A DNA stretch of 64,000 nucleotides from an uncultured Candidatus Saccharibacteria bacterium (lineage in GTDB: Bacteria; Patescibacteriota; Minisyncoccia; Phycocordibacterales; UBA9973): positions 6,110 to 70,109 of the forward strand of contig CAZKJE010000001.1 in the NCBI GenBank assembly GCA_964553015.1. Direction: 5' to 3'. The notes under the pieces were generated by a model that ran no database searches, was not told where the DNA came from, and worked only from the letters and a program-made list of their open reading frames with translations. Of this stretch, positions 10,350 through 51,777 are shown in pieces (within the stretch, counting starts at the first letter, position 1; each line of letters begins with the position of its first letter). Position numbers and translations under genes: made by a program.

Positions 10350-10409
10350 ATGCTAAAAATTTTTTGATTTTATTACTAAAAATGTTATATTTTTTCTGTA
10401 GGCATTTTC

Positions 10410-10481
10410 GGCTCTATCGTCTAACGGTTAGGACATATCCTTCTCAAGGATAGAATCGCGGTTCGATTCCGCGTAGAGTCA
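10410..10481 (+). tRNA. tRNA-Glu (anticodon CUC)
   Basis: Hand-folded. Acceptor GGCTCTA/TAGAGTC, D-stem GTC/GAC, anticodon stem TATCC/GGATA with loop TTCTCAA, T-arm CGCGG-TTCGATT-CCGCG, discriminator A, no encoded CCA. The msrA stop codon overlaps the last 3 nt on the opposite strand. Confidence 0.85.
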
Positions 10482-10964
10482 CAAATAGCTGTCAAACCAG
10501 ATAGCATGACATGTATATCCCGCGGGATTTTTTTGGAGATAATCCTGATGATATTCCTCTGCTTCGTAAAATGTATCTAACGGCTCTATAGTAGTGACCA
10601 CCTTATTCGGCCATCTGCCGGATTTGTTTACAATATCTATAAAATTTTCCGCTTCTTTTTTCTCTTCATCATTTCCGTAAAAAATAGCAGAACGATACGA
10701 GGTTCCTCTGTCGTTCCCCTGCTGATTTAGGGTTGTCGGATTATGGATCTGAAAGAAAAAATCCAGCAGTTTTTTGTAAGAAGTTTTTGTGTTGTCGTAT
10801 TCTATCTCCACGGCTTCGGCATGGCCCTCATGATTTTCATATGTAGGATTATTCACAGATCCGCCGGTATAGCCCACCCGGCTCTTCACCGCACCGGGCT
10901 GTTTCCGGATTAAATCCTGCAATCCCCAGAAGCATCCTCCTGCTAAAATTATTTTCTTGATCAT
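10479..10964 (-). CDS. msrA: Peptide methionine sulfoxide reductase A
   Basis: LAGGCFWG active-site motif near the N-terminus. 161 aa. Confidence 0.85.
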
Positions 10965-24597: not shown

Positions 24598-24672
24598 TGG
24601 TGACCCTACCGGGAATCGAACCCGGATTACCGGCTTGAAAAGCCGATGTCCTAACCGTTAGACGATAGGGCC
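24598..24672 (-). tRNA. tRNA-Glu (anticodon UUC), CCA encoded
   Basis: Acceptor GGCCCTA/TAGGGTC, D-arm identical in style to the tRNA-Glu(CUC), anticodon loop TTTTCAA, T-arm CCGGG-TTCGATT-CCCGG, 3' ACCA. Confidence 0.8.
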
Positions 24673-24786
24673 ATATAAAACTCAAGCCAAAATAATATAA
24701 CATTTTTCTGCTTAATTGCAAAACAAAAACCTCGCAAACGTTTGACTTGCTATAATTTTCATTAGTTATGAGGTATAATTAATCTC

Positions 24787-36832: not shown

Positions 36833-36903
36833 CGCGGGATTAGTTTAGTGGCAAAATGAGTCCTTCCCAAGGATTAGACGGGGTTTCGATTACCCCATCC
36901 CGC
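36833..36903 (+). tRNA. tRNA-Gly (anticodon CCC)
   Basis: Acceptor GCGGGAT/ATCCCGC, anticodon stem AGTCC/GGATT with loop TTCCCAA, T-arm GGGGT-TTCGATT-ACCCC, discriminator A. The D-arm is unusually AT-rich. Confidence 0.7.
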
Positions 36904-36908
36904 ACTTT

Positions 36909-37916
36909 TTATTTCACTACATTGACCGGCTCTCCTTTTAGAAATGCCTGTATGTTTACAATAGTGGTTTTTAATATTTCAGCCACTGCTTCGCGGGAGT
37001 AAAAAGCGATGTGCGGGGTAACGATCACCTGCGGCATATCTATTAGAACCTGATCTTCAACTATTATTTTATAATCTATTTTTTCTCTTTTATCGAAGCC
37101 AATAATTTCTTTTTGTATTTTTAAATCTCTTTCCCCTTCCAAAACATCCAGGCCGGCGCCGGCAATAATTCCCTCATTAATGCCCCAAATCAGAGCCTCG
37201 GTATCTATCAAAGCCCCGCGCGCGGTATTTATAAGATATGACCCCCTCTTCATTTTGGATATATTCTCTTTATTAATTAAGTGATAATTTTCTTTGGTAT
37301 AGGGAGTATGCAGAGTTATGATATCAGATTCTGCGATAACATCATCAAAACTTTTATATTCAAAATTGTTCTCTTCCGCAAAGGCCATGTCCGAATGAAG
37401 ATCATAGGCAACGACATTCATTTCAAAGCCTTTTGCAATTTTTATAACATTCTTGCCAATCCGGCCGACGCCTATAACTCCGATGGTCTTGCCCTGCAGA
37501 TCAAAACCCTGCAGAGAAGAATAAAAATTAAAATCCATTGAATCTCGCAGGTGATTATTAGCATTGATGATATTTCGTGAAAGATTCAAAATTAAAGAAA
37601 AAGTAAACTCTGCCACCGTATGGGGGCCATAAGCCGGCACGTTGGAAACCTTTATACCCTTTGTGGAACAATATTCTAAATCAATATGATCAAAACCGGT
37701 TGACCTAGTGGTAATAAATTTTAAATTAGGCAGCAAGGCAATGATATTTTTACTGACTATTGAATTGATAAAAACAGAAACAACTTCAGCGTCTTTTGCC
37801 TTACCGGCATTTTTTTCATCTAATTTTTCCTCAAAAAACAAAACATCCGGATTATTAAAAGCTTTTAAAAACATCGGCTGCTCTTCTTTCGGCACCTCAA
37901 AAAATGCGATTTTCAT
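36909..37916 (-). CDS. D-isomer-specific 2-hydroxyacid dehydrogenase (NAD-dependent)
   Basis: GVIGVGRIGKNV Rossmann motif and the catalytic R/E/H arrangement. 335 aa. Confidence 0.8.
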   Translation of the reverse strand: MKIAFFEVPKEEQPMFLKAFNNPDVLFFEEKLDEKNAGKAKDAEVVSVFINSIVSKNIIALLPNLKFITTRSTGFDHIDLEYCSTKGIKVSNVPAYGPHTVAEFTFSLILNLSRNIINANNHLRDSMDFNFYSSLQGFDLQGKTIGVIGVGRIGKNVIKIAKGFEMNVVAYDLHSDMAFAEENNFEYKSFDDVIAESDIITLHTPYTKENYHLINKENISKMKRGSYLINTARGALIDTEALIWGINEGIIAGAGLDVLEGERDLKIQKEIIGFDKREKIDYKIIVEDQVLIDMPQVIVTPHIAFYSREAVAEILKTTIVNIQAFLKGEPVNVVK

Positions 37917-38005
37917 AGGCTTATTGTAGCATATATACCTAAAAGAAAAAAATGTTTAACACCGAGTGTTGAACAATTTTTAATAAAGCTATATAATAGA
38001 AGCAA

Positions 38006-38671
38006 ATGAGAAACATAAAAATAGCGCCTGGTGAATATTACCACGTTTTCAATCGTGGAATGAGCAAGCAAACAATTTTCCATGATAATCGTGATCGAGT
38101 GCGATTTCTTTTTTTAATTTTATACTTTCAATCCCCTCTTATTCTGCAAAACATAGGCCGTTCTATAAAATCATTTGTTCAACACTCGGTGTTTAACATT
38201 GATCAAGAAATTATGCAGACAATAATCAAGGGTAGATTCGTAGAACTTACTTCTTTTTGCCTGATGCCGAATCATTTTCATTTAATTATAAAAGAGGTTG
38301 AAGAAAATGGTATAGCTAGATATATGCAAAGAGTCTTGAATAGTTATACTAAATATTATAATACAAAATACAAAAAATCAGGGCATCTTTTTCAGGGTCC
38401 ATATAAAGCCGTTCACGTAAAAAATAATAATCAACTTTTATATTTATCTTCATATGTTCACAGAAATCCGAGAGAACTAAAAGATTGGTTTAATAAAGAA
38501 GATAGTTATGAGTGGTCAAGCTATAGAGATTTTGTGAAAAATAACAGATTTAAAAAATTGCTTGTTTTTGATATTATACAGGAGCAATTTAAAAACAAAG
38601 AAGAATACGACCACTTCGTAAAAAGCAGCACAGCGAAATTATTAAAGGAGGAATTAGATTGGATAAGTTAA
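38006..38671 (+). CDS. tnpA: Y1 (HuH) transposase, IS200-like/REP-associated tyrosine transposase
   Basis: YHVFNRG N-terminal motif, HuH motif LMPNHFHLI, catalytic Tyr context SYVHRNP. 221 aa. Confidence 0.7.
   Translation: MRNIKIAPGEYYHVFNRGMSKQTIFHDNRDRVRFLFLILYFQSPLILQNIGRSIKSFVQHSVFNIDQEIMQTIIKGRFVELTSFCLMPNHFHLIIKEVEENGIARYMQRVLNSYTKYYNTKYKKSGHLFQGPYKAVHVKNNNQLLYLSSYVHRNPRELKDWFNKEDSYEWSSYRDFVKNNRFKKLLVFDIIQEQFKNKEEYDHFVKSSTAKLLKEELDWIS
38177..38197. repeat. REP-like hairpin copy (inverted orientation) inside the transposase ORF
   Basis: GTTCAACACTCGGTGTTTAAC is the reverse complement of the flanking repeat with a 1-nt difference. Confidence 0.6.
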
Positions 38672-38698
38672 ATTGTTTAACACCGAGTGTTGAACAAT

Positions 38699-39076
38699 CT
38701 ATTTAAATAAGTTCGCAAAAAAAGAGAAGAATCCCGACAGCGGAGACTTTTTTGGGGCTTCAGCTGGTTTCTGGTCTTCTACCACTACTATCATCTGCTC
38801 TCCTTCTTTTGCCAAACCGTAATTTTCGCGGAAAAATGCTTCTTTGCCCTCTTCGGTGTTTAAGCTTTCTATATCCAGTTCCAGTTTTTCTTTTTTATCC
38901 CGAAGCGCAGTAACTTTATCTTCAACTATTTTTTTATTATTTCCTGTTTCTTCCATTTTATTCCAAAACTTAAGTACGCTCCACGCAAATATCAATATCA
39001 AAATACCAAGAATAATCAAAACCGGCTTAGACTCTGCTACTTTTCTCCAGTTTATTTTTCGCTCGTAATTTCTCAT
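38699..39076 (-). CDS. Septum formation initiator (FtsB/DivIC-like)
   Basis: Single TM plus coiled coil, then EAFFRENYGLAKEGEQMIVV, a typical DivIC C-terminus. The ORF runs to 39208 but the Met at 39076 is the likely start. Confidence 0.5.
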   Translation of the reverse strand: MRNYERKINWRKVAESKPVLIILGILILIFAWSVLKFWNKMEETGNNKKIVEDKVTALRDKKEKLELDIESLNTEEGKEAFFRENYGLAKEGEQMIVVVEDQKPAEAPKKSPLSGFFSFFANLFK

Positions 39077-39209
39077 AAATATGCTATACTTCAGTATATG
39101 CTTTTCAATAAAAAACATCAAAAGAAGATACAGTTCGCCTGGGCGATAGTCAGCGTTTTGATCATCATAAGCATGATTTTGCTCTATTCGCCTATATTTA
39201 GGCTGCAAT

Positions 39210-49394: not shown

Positions 49395-50423
49395 TTATCT
49401 TACTGGTTTTGGGAACGGCGGGTATAGATCTTTATCTATAGTGCGAAGAAAACAAGTTCGTCCGGCTTCATGGCTCCACGATTCATTTGTGCCGCCGCCC
49501 GGATACGGGTAAGACACAGCCGCGTCTTTCTCGTAATACGGCATCATAGGAGGTATCCCTCCTCCGTAACTGTACTCCCTCCAGCCTTTCGGTATGGGTT
49601 GAGAAAAGGTAGCGCAAAGTTCAAACTGAAGAGAACCTTTCACTGCATACTCGTATGTTTTTCCTTTTTCAAATTCAGGTTCTACGGGCAAGGACCATCC
49701 GGAAATCGGGTCCGCCAGCTCGCTTAATGTTGCCGGTAATTTTTCTTTCTGCTGCCAGAAGTTAATTACCTGATATTGGATAGTCTGCAAATCATTTACT
49801 CTCCTGTCGTCTAAACGGAGAGATCTCTGCTTCATAGGACTGCCGAGAATAGCAAAACTGTAACTGACGGCCGTTATCACAATGACAATTCCCACGCCTC
49901 CCAAAATCATGCCGAGTTTTGATTGTGTTTCTTCTTTGGCTTTAAGATTACGTACATAGTAAAAACCTACAAGTCCGGCCACTATTAATACAGTTATAAC
50001 TTTATAAATAAATCTTGAAGTTATTTCTCCGGAAATAAAATACCTGACAAGCGTAACGAGATCGCCAGCGATAACAAGAGAAGAAAGAAAAAGAATAATA
50101 TATATCACCCATTTTTTAAACATCTCGTCGATCTGCCCCAAATACATCTTTGAAAATTTATTCCAAAAATAAGATATTGTGAGGAATATCGGAAAAACTA
50201 TTATGAGGGTTGCGAGCGCCGTGCGGATACCTTCATATTCGTACGTAGAATATCCGTATTGATAACTGGAATTTAAAACATCGGGAAAACGCTTGTTCAA
50301 TGTTTCAAAAACAAGATTTAGAAAAGATACGACCGAAGTTATTAAGGTTATTAATACCCCCAGACACAAGAAAAAGAACCCGACATTAAACTTTGAACTT
50401 ATAACGTTTGTTTGTGTTTCCAT
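49395..50423 (-). CDS. Hypothetical membrane protein with a C-terminal extracytoplasmic domain
   Basis: Five to six TM helices then a roughly 130-aa soluble domain. No motif recognised. Confidence 0.35.
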   Translation of the reverse strand: METQTNVISSKFNVGFFFLCLGVLITLITSVVSFLNLVFETLNKRFPDVLNSSYQYGYSTYEYEGIRTALATLIIVFPIFLTISYFWNKFSKMYLGQIDEMFKKWVIYIILFLSSLVIAGDLVTLVRYFISGEITSRFIYKVITVLIVAGLVGFYYVRNLKAKEETQSKLGMILGGVGIVIVITAVSYSFAILGSPMKQRSLRLDDRRVNDLQTIQYQVINFWQQKEKLPATLSELADPISGWSLPVEPEFEKGKTYEYAVKGSLQFELCATFSQPIPKGWREYSYGGGIPPMMPYYEKDAAVSYPYPGGGTNESWSHEAGRTCFLRTIDKDLYPPFPKPVR

Positions 50424-50468
50424 GTCTATTATTATATCATATGTAAATTAGGCAACAATAGAGAATAT

Positions 50469-50849
50469 ATGCGGAAAAAATTCGAGAATTTTTCAAAAAA
50501 ATTGACTCGCTGGATTGGTTCGCCCCAGTCTATATTGGTGCACACTCTTTTTTTTGCGGGAATGTTAGGCCTGCGGTTATTTGGCATATCCTCTTCGGAT
50601 GTTCTGCTAATTTTAACAACTGTTGTATCCCTTGAAGCGATATATTTATCAATTTTTATACAAATGACGGTAAATCAGCATGCGCAGGAGCTGGAAGAAG
50701 TTTCTGAAGACATTGGAGAAATTCAGGAAGACGTGGAAGAAATTCAGGAGAACGTCGACGAGATTCAGGAAGACGTTGAGGATATTCAGGAAGAAATTCA
50801 GGATGAAGAAAATGGGCCGGTGCTGCCGGAACAAAATAAATCTATTTAA
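50469..50849 (+). CDS. Small 2-TM membrane protein (DUF1003-like) with an acidic heptad-repeat tail
   Basis: The ORF begins at 50412 and overlaps the upstream gene. The likely start is the Met at 50469. C-terminal EIQEDVEEIQENVDEIQEDVEDIQEEIQDEE. Confidence 0.4.
   Translation: MRKKFENFSKKLTRWIGSPQSILVHTLFFAGMLGLRLFGISSSDVLLILTTVVSLEAIYLSIFIQMTVNQHAQELEEVSEDIGEIQEDVEEIQENVDEIQEDVEDIQEEIQDEENGPVLPEQNKSI
50716..50805 (+). repeat. Tandem 21-nt coding repeat (4+ units) encoding the EIQEDVE heptad
   Basis: gaaattcaggaagacgtggaa / gaaattcaggagaacgtcgac / gagattcaggaagacgttgag / gatattcaggaagaaattcag. Confidence 0.7.
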
Positions 50850-51777
50850 CAGAGTGCCAAATAGCTGTATTAGCAAGCGGAATGATGCGACTGTTTGATC
50901 TTTCTAGAACGCAAAGCTCTCCCTGTTCTGTTTTTCCCTCAAAACTTTTCATCATATCTTCTAGCGCGTAGCCGAGAGATAGTGACGAAGAATCTATCGC
51001 GTACGAAGTTATAATTACAAAAAGCGGCTTATCAGAGAGAACTTTTTTTACTTGTGCAAGAAGTTTCGGGAGCATTTCTTCTATTTTCCAGACTTCGCCT
51101 TTTGGCCCCCTGCCAAATTTCGGCGGGTCCATGATAATCGCATCATATTTATTTCCCCTCTTTTCTTCCCTTTCTAAAAACTTTATAACGTCATCTTCTA
51201 TAACCCTCATAGGTGCAGGAGCAAGCTCAGCGTTTAATTGTTGGTTTTCCTTGGCCCAGTTCAAAGTCTGTTTTGAGGCATCTACGTGCGTCACTTCCGC
51301 GCCGGCCCGCAAAGCAAACAAACTTGCTACTCCGGTATAGCCAAATAAGTTTAAAAATTTCACTTGTCCGCCTCTGGCGGATTTTGCTTTTTTTATTTCA
51401 TTTTCTATAAAATCCCAGTGGCTCGCCTGCTCTGGGAAAAATCCCAAATGCCGAAAAGGCGTCGGGGTCGCCAAAAATTTAATGTCCCTATATTCCATCT
51501 CCCACTTAAAAGGACGGTCCTTAAGAGAGTTTCCCAAAGGACCGTCCTTGGATATAACCCAGCCCTTTTTTGCCCCCTGTTTTGAGCTCCAAAATTTTCC
51601 ATCTGCACTCTTCCACATTTGTTTAACACTCGGTGTTGAACATTTCGGCCAGACAGCATCTTCGTATGGGCGAATAAAAACATATTGCCCGAACCGCTCG
51701 AGCTTCTCTCCTTCGCCGGTATCTAAAAGCTCATAATCTTTCCATTCTTTTGAGTAAAAAAGTTTAATTTCTTTCAT
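50842..51777 (-). CDS. Class I SAM-dependent rRNA methyltransferase (RlmI/RlmK-like)
   Basis: N-terminal PUA-like region, methyltransferase motif I LNLFGYTGVASLFA, motif IV DAIIMDPPKF. 311 aa. Confidence 0.7.
   Translation of the reverse strand: MKEIKLFYSKEWKDYELLDTGEGEKLERFGQYVFIRPYEDAVWPKCSTPSVKQMWKSADGKFWSSKQGAKKGWVISKDGPLGNSLKDRPFKWEMEYRDIKFLATPTPFRHLGFFPEQASHWDFIENEIKKAKSARGGQVKFLNLFGYTGVASLFALRAGAEVTHVDASKQTLNWAKENQQLNAELAPAPMRVIEDDVIKFLEREEKRGNKYDAIIMDPPKFGRGPKGEVWKIEEMLPKLLAQVKKVLSDKPLFVIITSYAIDSSSLSLGYALEDMMKSFEGKTEQGELCVLERSNSRIIPLANTAIWHSVK
51621..51642. repeat. REP-like hairpin copy embedded in-frame in the methyltransferase ORF
   Basis: GTTTAACACTCGGTGTTGAACA has the same stems as the transposase-flanking repeat with an inverted loop. 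It encodes CSTPSVK. Confidence 0.6.

Follow-up and report, generated by a model that had tools for sequence, protein, structure and literature searches.

Repetitive extragenic palindromic (REP) sequences and the REP-associated tyrosine transposases (RAYTs) that accompany them are the textbook example of a domesticated bacterial transposase, and most descriptions of them come from Proteobacteria, Cyanobacteria, and Bacteroidetes. Here we describe a related locus in a 64,000-nucleotide (nt) stretch of DNA, hereafter the window, from an uncultured Candidatus Saccharibacteria bacterium of the phylum Patescibacteriota (contig CAZKJE010000001.1, positions 6,110 to 70,109). The locus consists of a gene for a Y1 HUH endonuclease and three copies of a short hairpin, two of which bracket the gene while the third lies in frame within it. 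We consider it probable that the locus is a REPtron-like cassette, which is to say a domesticated class-2 Y1 nuclease gene accompanied by a cognate hairpin family. The anatomy of the locus, its conservation, the predicted fold of its protein, and the dispersal of its hairpins were all computed in the present study.

Several described systems serve as points of reference. In the scheme of Quentin et al. (2018; PMC6006769), Y1 proteins with a Y---NP motif belong to class 2, which is TnpAREP-like, and those with a Y---Q motif are IS200 transposases. One class-2 protein is the Escherichia coli TnpAREP, or RAYT (YafM, subclass 2.2), with its flanking REP/BIME, for which a structure bound to a REP hairpin is available (4ER8). 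RAYT genes are flanked by REPs in inverted orientation, and their proteins carry the motif NP(L/V)(R/K)xG after the tyrosine (Nunvar et al. 2010; PMC2817692). That REPs are propagated or homogenized by their RAYTs has been proposed earlier (PMC2817692). Another group, TnpAY1 subclass 2.1, corresponds to Group 1 of Bertels and to the TIRYT/TIRtron of Di Nocera et al. (2013), and was reported to lack REP-like hairpins (PMC6006769). TIRYTs are associated with long terminal inverted repeats that carry a GGGGWSAS motif (Di Nocera et al. 2013).

Three hairpins accompany the Y1 gene

The 25-mer TGTTTAACACCGAGTGTTGAACAAT occurs twice without mismatch in the window, both times on the forward strand, once on each side of the Y1 gene (Table 1). 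A first-pass annotation of the sequence had recognized this pair and had placed its members 30 nt before the start codon and 3 nt after the stop codon. These distances are approximately right: 28 nt separate the upstream hairpin from the ATG (38006), and the downstream hairpin begins 2 nt past the TAA (38669-38671). When up to three mismatches were permitted, four matches were found in the window, compared with 0.00 expected from 100 dinucleotide-preserving shuffles, and a search of the window with a 13-nt core yielded nothing credible beyond these four. The motif is therefore not confined to the two flanking positions, as the annotation had also claimed, although the additional window copies number only two and both reside in coding sequence. 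One is in a methyltransferase gene; the other, which the annotation missed, is a conserved hairpin inside the Y1 gene itself. The window thus contains four hairpins in 64 kilobases (kb), three at the Y1 gene and one dispersed.

When folded as single-stranded DNA, both flanking copies form a stem of 10-12 base pairs (bp) with a 3-nt loop and one T.G mismatch (-8.5 kcal/mol and z-score -4.7 for the upstream copy, -7.5 kcal/mol and -4.1 for the downstream copy). A hairpin had been correctly anticipated, but the core proposed for it, AACAC-CGA-GTGTT, is too short. Across the family, the core reads TGTT-N-AACAC, then a 3-nt loop that is mostly CGA, then GTGTT-N'-AACA, and the whole unit spans 23-27 nt. 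An Rfam search returned only the neighboring tRNA-Gly and one sub-threshold chance match, with no known RNA family over the hairpins.

To place the locus among its relatives, loci were gathered by exact-protein look-ups and by scanning one genome per species for TGTTNAACACNNNGTGTTNAACA, and hairpins were mapped around every Y1 homologue at up to two mismatches. A common layout emerged in about 20 Paceibacteria genomes whose Y1 proteins share 50-100% identity: one hairpin upstream of the gene, one at codon 57, and one downstream. The upstream copy usually lies 12-30 nt before the start codon, and occasionally about 60 nt (range to 62 nt). The internal copy occupies codon 57 in frame 2 in 19 of the 22 homologous loci that cover the region. 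The downstream copy is located 0-25 nt past the stop codon or overlaps the 3' end of the gene. We conclude that the three hairpins are a conserved feature of this Y1 gene family in about 20 genomes.

The orientation of a hairpin can be read from its 3-nt loop only. On the gene strand, the loop is mostly CGA in the upstream copies of relatives and mostly TCG in the internal copies. Downstream copies are of both kinds, with TCG (inverted) in about 10 loci and CGA (direct) in about 6, and for this reason the direct flanking arrangement of the window represents the minority form. In the window, the upstream and internal copies constitute an inverted repeat of 26 nt, 96% complementary, whose arms are 198 nt apart.

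A more distant paralogue, 33% identical, was encountered in a separate locus (L050, 1466-2164). Two overlapping, related hairpins with a CCG/CGG loop are located 62-76 nt upstream of it, and variants of this hairpin may accordingly serve further Y1 subfamilies in these bacteria.

The internal hairpin is conserved at synonymous positions

The internal hairpin is embedded in the open reading frame (ORF) of the Y1 gene. A codon alignment of 20 Y1 genes was used to compare third-position identity in eight-codon windows, and no other part of the gene reached the value of codons 57-64 (0.77; mean 0.53, standard deviation 0.06). His60 is encoded by CAC in 16 of 16 genes, Val62 by GTG in 16 of 16, and Asn64 by AAC in 15 of 17. 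For CAC at the internal copy, a count of 17/20 was also obtained. Elsewhere in the same genes, these codons account for 47 of 147 His, 34 of 177 Val, and 89 of 254 Asn positions, respectively, which means that the codons used at the hairpin run opposite to the preference of the remaining gene. Judged by this pattern of codon use, the internal hairpin is selected as nucleic acid.

The one variable base pair of the stem is also read out in the protein, such that VKHSVFN corresponds to A-T, VQHSVLN to C-G, and VEHSVFN to G-C. In the predicted structure of the protein, the peptide encoded by the hairpin falls in the sole long internal segment with a predicted local distance difference test (pLDDT) score below 50 (residues 49-62), as would fit a hairpin carried in frame within a surface loop.

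The Y1 protein belongs to class 2

The protein encoded by the gene carries the motifs YHVFNRG, LMPNHFHLI, and SYVHRNP, as first noted from its translation. By sequence, it is a Y1 HUH enzyme with the HuH and tyrosine motifs, and the Pfam Y1_Tnp model (PF01797) recognizes residues 67-154 at 42 bits, above its cut-off of 23 (E 1.2e-10). In a database search 1820 homologues were found, and those that bear a name are almost exclusively from Patescibacteria (Nomurabacteria, Parcubacteria, Minisyncoccia, and others). The best 120 of the 1820 are 62-100% identical to the query along its full length. In an alignment of 18 homologues (63-100% identity), the HuH residues H90, F91, and H92 are invariant, as are Y150, H152, and N154, while P155 is conserved in at least 90%. 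The invariance of the catalytic His, His, and Tyr argues for retained chemistry.

An AlphaFold model built from the 18-homologue alignment reached a mean pLDDT of 73.6 and a predicted template modeling score of 0.79. A fold search with this model retrieved 4er8_A, the TnpAREP structure, as its top PDB match (E 2.1e-5), followed by the TnpA proteins of IS608 and ISDra2. A profile search of PDB sequences found ISDra2 TnpA at E 0.006, and querying PDB sequences with the single sequence gave no relevant match. The link to solved Y1 transposases therefore comes from the profile and fold searches.

The first-pass annotation called the protein "IS200-type", which is strictly wrong. Its YVHRNP at residues 150-155 is the Y---NP of class 2 rather than the Y---Q of IS200 transposases (PMC6006769). 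Additional motifs are NHFH at 89-92, FQ at 129-130 (within LFQ), and WSSY at 170-173. Read by eye against Table 1 of PMC6006769, these motifs resemble those of subclass 2.1. The RAYT motif NP(L/V)(R/K)xG after the tyrosine is absent, as the protein reads NPRELK and shares only the NP. No distal C-terminal helix-turn-helix (HTH) or Bac_DnaA_C-like domain was detected with Pfam at E <=0.1.

A hairpin family dispersed through Paceibacteria genomes

The genome scan for TGTTNAACACNNNGTGTTNAACA recovered at least 118 stretches, nearly all of them from metagenome-assembled genomes of Patescibacteria. Among the matches listed are Nomura-, Niyogi-, Zambryski-, Kaiser-, Sung-, Taga-, Vogel-, and Nealsonbacteria, Paceibacterota, and Minisyncoccia; 24 of the stretches listed include a Y1 homologue and 94 do not. 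Several genomes contributed three to five separate 8-kb stretches to the matches listed, mostly each on its own contig, and the largest contribution from one genome was five stretches on four to five contigs. Matches in Pseudomonas, Idiomarina, and Melainabacteria were set aside as chance, given our estimate of about 10 such matches for 18 specified bases in 596 Gb. The motif was also seen on contigs binned as Methanosarcinales (L059 999-1035, in tandem and overlapping) and as Omnitrophota (L104 1931-1953); these occurrences could be mis-binned Patescibacteria DNA or a sign of wider distribution.

The statistics of the family are based on 143 sites from the loci collected. The loop was left free in the search, yet it is CGA in 109 of the 143. 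The unconstrained stem pair is Watson-Crick in 106 of the 143, whereas column frequencies predict about 38% by our own arithmetic. Moreover, perfect pairing continues for at least 4 bp beyond the stem into non-conserved flanks at 24 sites, compared with 3.3 expected from shuffled partners. This covariation and the pairing of the flanks indicate that the conserved entity is a hairpin rather than a plain sequence. Many intergenic copies are bordered by A-runs and T-runs.

Away from the Y1 gene there are 92 sites, of which 53 (58%) are intergenic in that they are in no ORF of at least 100 amino acids (aa); 7 are in ORFs of 100-199 aa and 32 in ORFs of at least 200 aa. The intragenic share of dispersed copies is accordingly about 35-42%. 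Eight of the largest host ORFs confirmed by Pfam encode SecA, RecG, LigA, PheT, MetRS, MurC, YchF, and MurG, and in SecA, LigA, MetRS, PheT, and YchF the hairpin is located between matched domains or at their edge. All three reading frames and both orientations occur among the intragenic hairpins. At low density, then, hairpins are dispersed in Paceibacteria through intergenic DNA and the linkers of housekeeping genes.

The core of the hairpin is almost invariant throughout a class-level clade, and the variable stem pair follows a different pattern. Its identity between sites is 0.78 within a genome but 0.38 between genomes, and many genomes are uniform (for example, 5 of 5 sites C-G, or 5 of 5 A-T). 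A stem base that is specific to a genome needs copying or conversion within that genome, and this homogeneity is the strongest indirect argument, drawn from sequence comparison, that the hairpins are propagated or homogenized.

The methyltransferase copy

The dispersed copy of the window lies in a gene for a class I S-adenosylmethionine (SAM) methyltransferase. Like the two copies that flank the Y1 gene, it has the unusual T...G arms, its reversed loop being the sole difference. Among 120 orthologues of the methyltransferase, 30 carry CSTPSV[QEK][QH] at the hairpin site, and one orthologue, in locus L072, has an intact DNA hairpin motif there. Other orthologues have either a decayed version of the same length (e.g., TLTKEVQK) or a form shorter by 3 aa (TLSK-KE), and the shorter form equals in length the solved Agrobacterium homologue 2igt. 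Since the hairpin form is just 3 aa longer than the hairpin-free form and 2igt, a simple insertion model for this site was rejected. On a poorly resolved neighbor-joining tree of the 120 orthologues, presence of the hairpin peptide requires 26 changes, compared with 35 in shuffles (minimum 28), a scattered distribution that would suit repeated gain and loss or an old polymorphism alike.

The same gene contains a second in-frame palindromic insert (window 51510-51549), in which AAGGACGGTCCTT and AAGGACCGTCCTT, 14 nt apart, encode SKDGPLGNSLKDRP. This insert is present or absent depending on the orthologue (GWTYSKDGPWGNSLKDRPLKWE vs GWKFDKK--ITDKWE). Its palindrome AAGGACSGTCCTT, which occurs twice in the methyltransferase gene, was considered as another dispersed family and rejected, because it is found nowhere else in the window or in 123 loci. 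Short inserts occur at a neighboring site in orthologues P0157, P0166, P0168, P0173, P0179, and P0239 (GGKGGLASLKQR[GE]S, TSRARLVAKATEV). The inserted part of the methyltransferase is an indel hot spot in Patescibacteria.

Comparison with described systems

A close parallel is the E. coli TnpAREP/RAYT. As in that system, the Y1 HUH gene, found once in the window, is bracketed by a short hairpin with further copies around the genome, its product carries the class-2 Y---NP, and hairpins at the gene and away from it evolve in concert. The E. coli structure is also the best match to our model. The differences are numerous. The hairpin described here has no GT[AG]G head, and reaches tens of copies per genome at most rather than hundreds. 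By comparison with canonical REPs, which exceed 100 per genome and are extragenic, the present family is sparse and more than a third of its dispersed copies are intragenic. Its core is near-invariant across a class-level clade, in contrast to the species-specific REPs of the E. coli type, and the ORF itself holds an additional conserved copy. The Y1 protein is also about 55 aa longer, with a C-terminal tail, and scores below the cut-off of the NCBIfam RAYT model. Finally, the two flanking copies of the window are direct, with CGA on the forward strand, and not inverted as in the RAYT loci of Nunvar et al. (2010).

At the level of protein motifs, there is a resemblance to subclass 2.1. Its set of NH[YF]H, FQ, Y[IV]H-NP (Y[IV]HLNP), and a proximal tail with SS is mirrored by NHFH, LFQ, YVHRNP, and WSSY, and the length of 221 aa is similar to its median of 238. 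Low copy number and moderately abundant flanking repeats are likewise shared with subclass 2.1, Group 1, and the TIRYTs. However, the flanks here are short self-complementary hairpins in which no GGGGWSAS motif was seen, and the distal HTH or Bac_DnaA_C domain of that subclass was not detected.

Other systems share particular features. In subclass 2.4 of Cyanobacteria and Bacteroidetes, a REP can lie in frame within the transposase gene in a region modeled as a loop; in the present family the internal copy occupies a single fixed site before the HuH motif and is conserved family-wide and at synonymous sites, and the motifs are FQ and YVHRNP instead of WQ and YIxNNP. The TnpA proteins of IS200/IS608 (subclass 1.1) have in common with this locus the Y1 HUH fold, a same-strand hairpin at each end of the ORF (in the window), and a size of about 0.7 kb. 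They differ in having Y---Q and a shorter protein, whereas here the window has a single copy, set among conserved neighbors, and the hairpins are dispersed on their own. Intragenic REPs and the Rickettsia palindromic elements (RPEs) likewise place palindromes in frame within functional housekeeping genes of a reduced genome, where most of them occupy linkers or loops. RPEs are longer, with intragenic REP dimers encoding 20-30 aa or more compared with 8-9 aa for the unit described here, and the CGTC type is not known to have a transposase dedicated to it, whereas the present hairpin is linked to a Y1 gene. It also recurs at orthologous sites in different species, unlike RPEs.

Each unusual feature has partial precedent in known systems. 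In the literature searched, we found no description of a subclass 2.1-like protein with short hairpins lacking GTAG, of a fixed and synonymously conserved hairpin copy before the HuH motif, of class-wide near-invariance of a hairpin, or of a large intragenic share at low copy number, nor of the combination of these features in Patescibacteria. In keeping with the expectation that such systems have scarcely been recorded in ultra-small genomes, the library searched contained no relevant paper on REPs or RAYTs in this phylum, and only one preprint that names a KEGG term for an archaeal gene.

Gene neighborhood

In the window, a glutaredoxin gene precedes the Y1 gene at some remove, and the convergent genes for DivIC and LepA follow (Table 1). 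The downstream hairpin abuts the stop codon of the DivIC-like gene. This neighborhood is common to genomes whose Y1 proteins are 79-80% identical, while more distant homologues have other neighbors. The protein gave the sole tblastn match within the window, and no sampled genome yielded a second close copy of the gene. These observations suggest that the Y1 gene, present once in the window, may be mostly vertically inherited and in this sense domesticated.

Comparison of window 36834-38698 with L052 5863-7711 and L045 5540-6381 revealed one rearrangement. The cassette of the window has a 2-hydroxyacid dehydrogenase gene on one side and DivIC on the other; that of L052 and L045 is upstream of tRNA-Gly(CCC). 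The cassette is thus on opposite sides of the tRNA-Gly(CCC) / 2-hydroxyacid dehydrogenase block, the dehydrogenase gene being absent from L045. Because the slots differ and the breakpoints coincide with hairpins, a rearrangement with its breakpoints at hairpins has occurred, and it could reflect either rare movement of the cassette or rearrangement mediated by the hairpins.

Upstream of the Y1 gene there is a weak candidate promoter. Its -35-like hexamer, TTGAAC, overlaps the 3' arm of the upstream hairpin, and its -10 hexamer, TATAAT, ends 8 nt 5' of the ATG. Such an overlap is not general, as the hairpin is 12-15 nt from the start codon in other loci. The upstream hairpin has a terminator-like score, and a role as terminator was rejected for this locus because the genes on either side of the copy are transcribed divergently and leave nothing to terminate.

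Table 1. Coordinates in the window of the Y1 gene, the hairpin copies, and associated features
Feature	Position	Strand	Description
Upstream hairpin	37953..37977	+	25-mer; arms TGTTTAACAC / GTGTTGAACA; CGA loop
Candidate sigma-70-type promoter of Y1 gene	37969..37997	+	Consensus match only, 10/12 positions; weak
Y1 HUH endonuclease gene	38006..38671	+	221 aa; class-2, TnpAREP/RAYT-like; subclass 2.1-like motifs
Internal hairpin	38174..38198	-	2 mismatches; inverted; within Y1 ORF, codons 57-64, FVQHSVFN
Downstream hairpin	38674..38698	+	Same 25-mer as upstream copy; direct orientation
DivIC-like gene	38699-39208	-	Convergent with Y1 gene
Class I SAM methyltransferase gene	50842-51777	-	311 aa; host of dispersed hairpin
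Dispersed hairpin copy	51618..51642	-	3 mismatches, all in loop; within methyltransferase ORF; encodes CSTPSVKQ

Three other repeats were noted in the window. Five copies of a 42-nt unit (50692-50808), with in-register starts mostly 21 nt apart, are found within the ORF at 50412-50849 and encode an acidic heptad-like repeat, (E/D)(E/D)(V/I)xE(D/N)(V/I)... A 53-nt direct repeat that is 72% identical (288-340 and 568-620) contains CTATTCTATAATTCTA in neighboring stretches that appear intergenic, and may be a repeated promoter or operator. The longest inverted repeat of the window (10388-10482 and 24600-24694; 95 nt, 74% complementary, 14 kb apart) is probably paralogous coding sequence.

Proposed mechanism and competing explanations

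The locus is neither a canonical RAYT/REP system nor an IS200 element. A REPtron-like cassette is nonetheless the reading we judge probable, and the proposal that a RAYT is present with its cognate REPs holds in part: the HuH and tyrosine residues are invariant, the fold is nearest to TnpAREP, flanking hairpins recur in about 20 genomes, and the hairpin family is dispersed over contigs. By analogy with TnpAREP and IS608 TnpA, we infer that the Y1 protein may bind, cleave, and mobilize the hairpins. It would bind the stem-loop in single-stranded DNA, such as that of the replication fork, and would then nick and rejoin the DNA by means of Tyr150 and the HuH metal site. Such nicking and rejoining could copy or homogenize hairpins, with those at the Y1 gene as the source. 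Copying from the gene's own hairpins would explain why each genome tends to have one variable stem base pair.

Several results weigh against this reading. The NCBIfam equivalog model for RAYTs (NF047646, REP_Tyr_transpos) gives the protein 35.6 bits, below its cut-off of 80. No conserved GT[AG]G-like tetranucleotide stands beside the stem among the 143 sites, where the flanks are just A/T-rich. Copy number is low, with one dispersed hairpin in 64 kb, a large share of dispersed copies is intragenic, and the flanking copies of the window are direct. Quentin et al. found no REP-like sequences for subclass 2.1, the subclass whose motifs the protein resembles. The difference of only 3 aa at the methyltransferase site is not explained by cut-and-paste of a 23-27-nt unit. 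Moreover, hairpins occupy the same position in orthologues of different species in PheT, MetRS, YchF, and the methyltransferase, which is explained equally well by mobility and by ancient inheritance under selection.

If the cassette were an autonomous IS200-type insertion sequence (IS), it would be a 746-bp element with same-strand subterminal hairpins as its ends, and would transpose as a unit by way of a single-stranded circle. Its length and the two identical direct hairpins set tightly around the ORF do resemble IS200/IS608 ends, the Pfam family bears the name "Transposase IS200 like", and the altered position of the cassette in L052 and L045, with breakpoints at hairpins, is what a mobile element might leave behind. 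We regard this explanation as very unlikely. The protein has 221 aa rather than about 150 aa, YVHRNP places it in class 2, no tnpB gene is nearby among the window ORFs, and most relatives have their upstream and downstream hairpins in inverted orientation to each other. Furthermore, there is a single window copy with no near-identical copies, the neighborhood is kept in genomes at 79-80% protein identity, and homologues diverge gradually, from 87% to 50% within one class, as for vertical inheritance. It is the lack of multiplicity, the class-2 tyrosine motif, and the gradual divergence that lead us to conclude that the cassette is not an IS. An even less probable explanation is that the hairpins have nothing to do with the Y1 protein and act as a structural signal of the host, for instance as bidirectional terminators, mRNA stabilizers, or an uptake or recognition sequence, and that their copies around the gene are incidental. 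The A-runs and T-runs that flank many intergenic copies, the terminator-like upstream copy of the window, and the position of the downstream copy between convergent genes are all in keeping with such a signal, and 58% of the dispersed copies are intergenic in genomes of which intergenic DNA is only a small part. However, it cannot be incidental that three copies hold fixed places relative to one gene in about 20 genomes, synonymous sites of the Y1 ORF preserve the internal copy, and the upstream copy has nothing to terminate between its divergent genes. Known uptake sequences are also far denser than this hairpin family.

An explanation to which we give somewhat more credence, while still thinking it improbable, is that the Y1 protein is a sequence-specific binder of DNA or RNA and the palindromes are its operators or regulatory hairpins, in a scheme of autoregulation and a small regulon that involves neither cleavage nor mobility. 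A 23-bp dyad is operator-like, and the upstream copy of the window overlaps the -35-like hexamer. Upstream and internal copies are usually in opposite orientation, and because those of the window form a 26-nt inverted repeat of 96% complementarity, they could pair across the start codon in the transcript. The near-invariance of the core class-wide, unlike the fast co-evolution of proteobacterial REPs, and the retention of orthologous intragenic sites across species also suit a regulator. Against it stand the invariant catalytic His, His, and Tyr, and the genome-specific homogenization of the variable stem pair, which needs copying or conversion. That pairing extends into the non-conserved flanks points to a folded single strand and not to a duplex operator. 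About 40% of the dispersed copies are mid-coding and in both orientations relative to transcription, which are poor positions for operators, and the distance from hairpin to start codon varies from 12 to 62 nt.

A broader interpretation is that hairpin and Y1 nuclease together serve an ancient host function in Paceibacteria and are not a selfish repeat system. We consider this unlikely, although it deserves to be kept in view because a 23-nt hairpin is near-invariant class-wide, is locked in the frame of the nuclease gene, and occupies orthologous linkers in essential genes (PheT, MetRS, YchF, and the methyltransferase). If it were true, the hairpins would be programmed sites of single-stranded DNA processing, for example for replication-coupled nicking or restart, or for copy correction, and the nuclease would keep them homogeneous in each genome.

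Implications for Patescibacteria

If the locus is indeed a REPtron-like cassette, the window suggests that a major class of ultra-small, host-dependent Patescibacteria has, as a conserved feature, a system related to RAYT/REP. The system would depart from the textbook in several respects: its protein resembles a subclass reported to lack REPs, its hairpin has no GTAG guide, near-invariance reaches deep into the clade, and one copy is fixed in the nuclease gene itself. A large share of the copies is inside essential genes, even though the genomes are under strong pressure to stay small. With one protein of 221 aa and one hairpin of 23 nt, the cassette may offer a compact model for what domesticated Y1 nucleases do for their hosts, and for how short palindromes enter coding sequence in frame.

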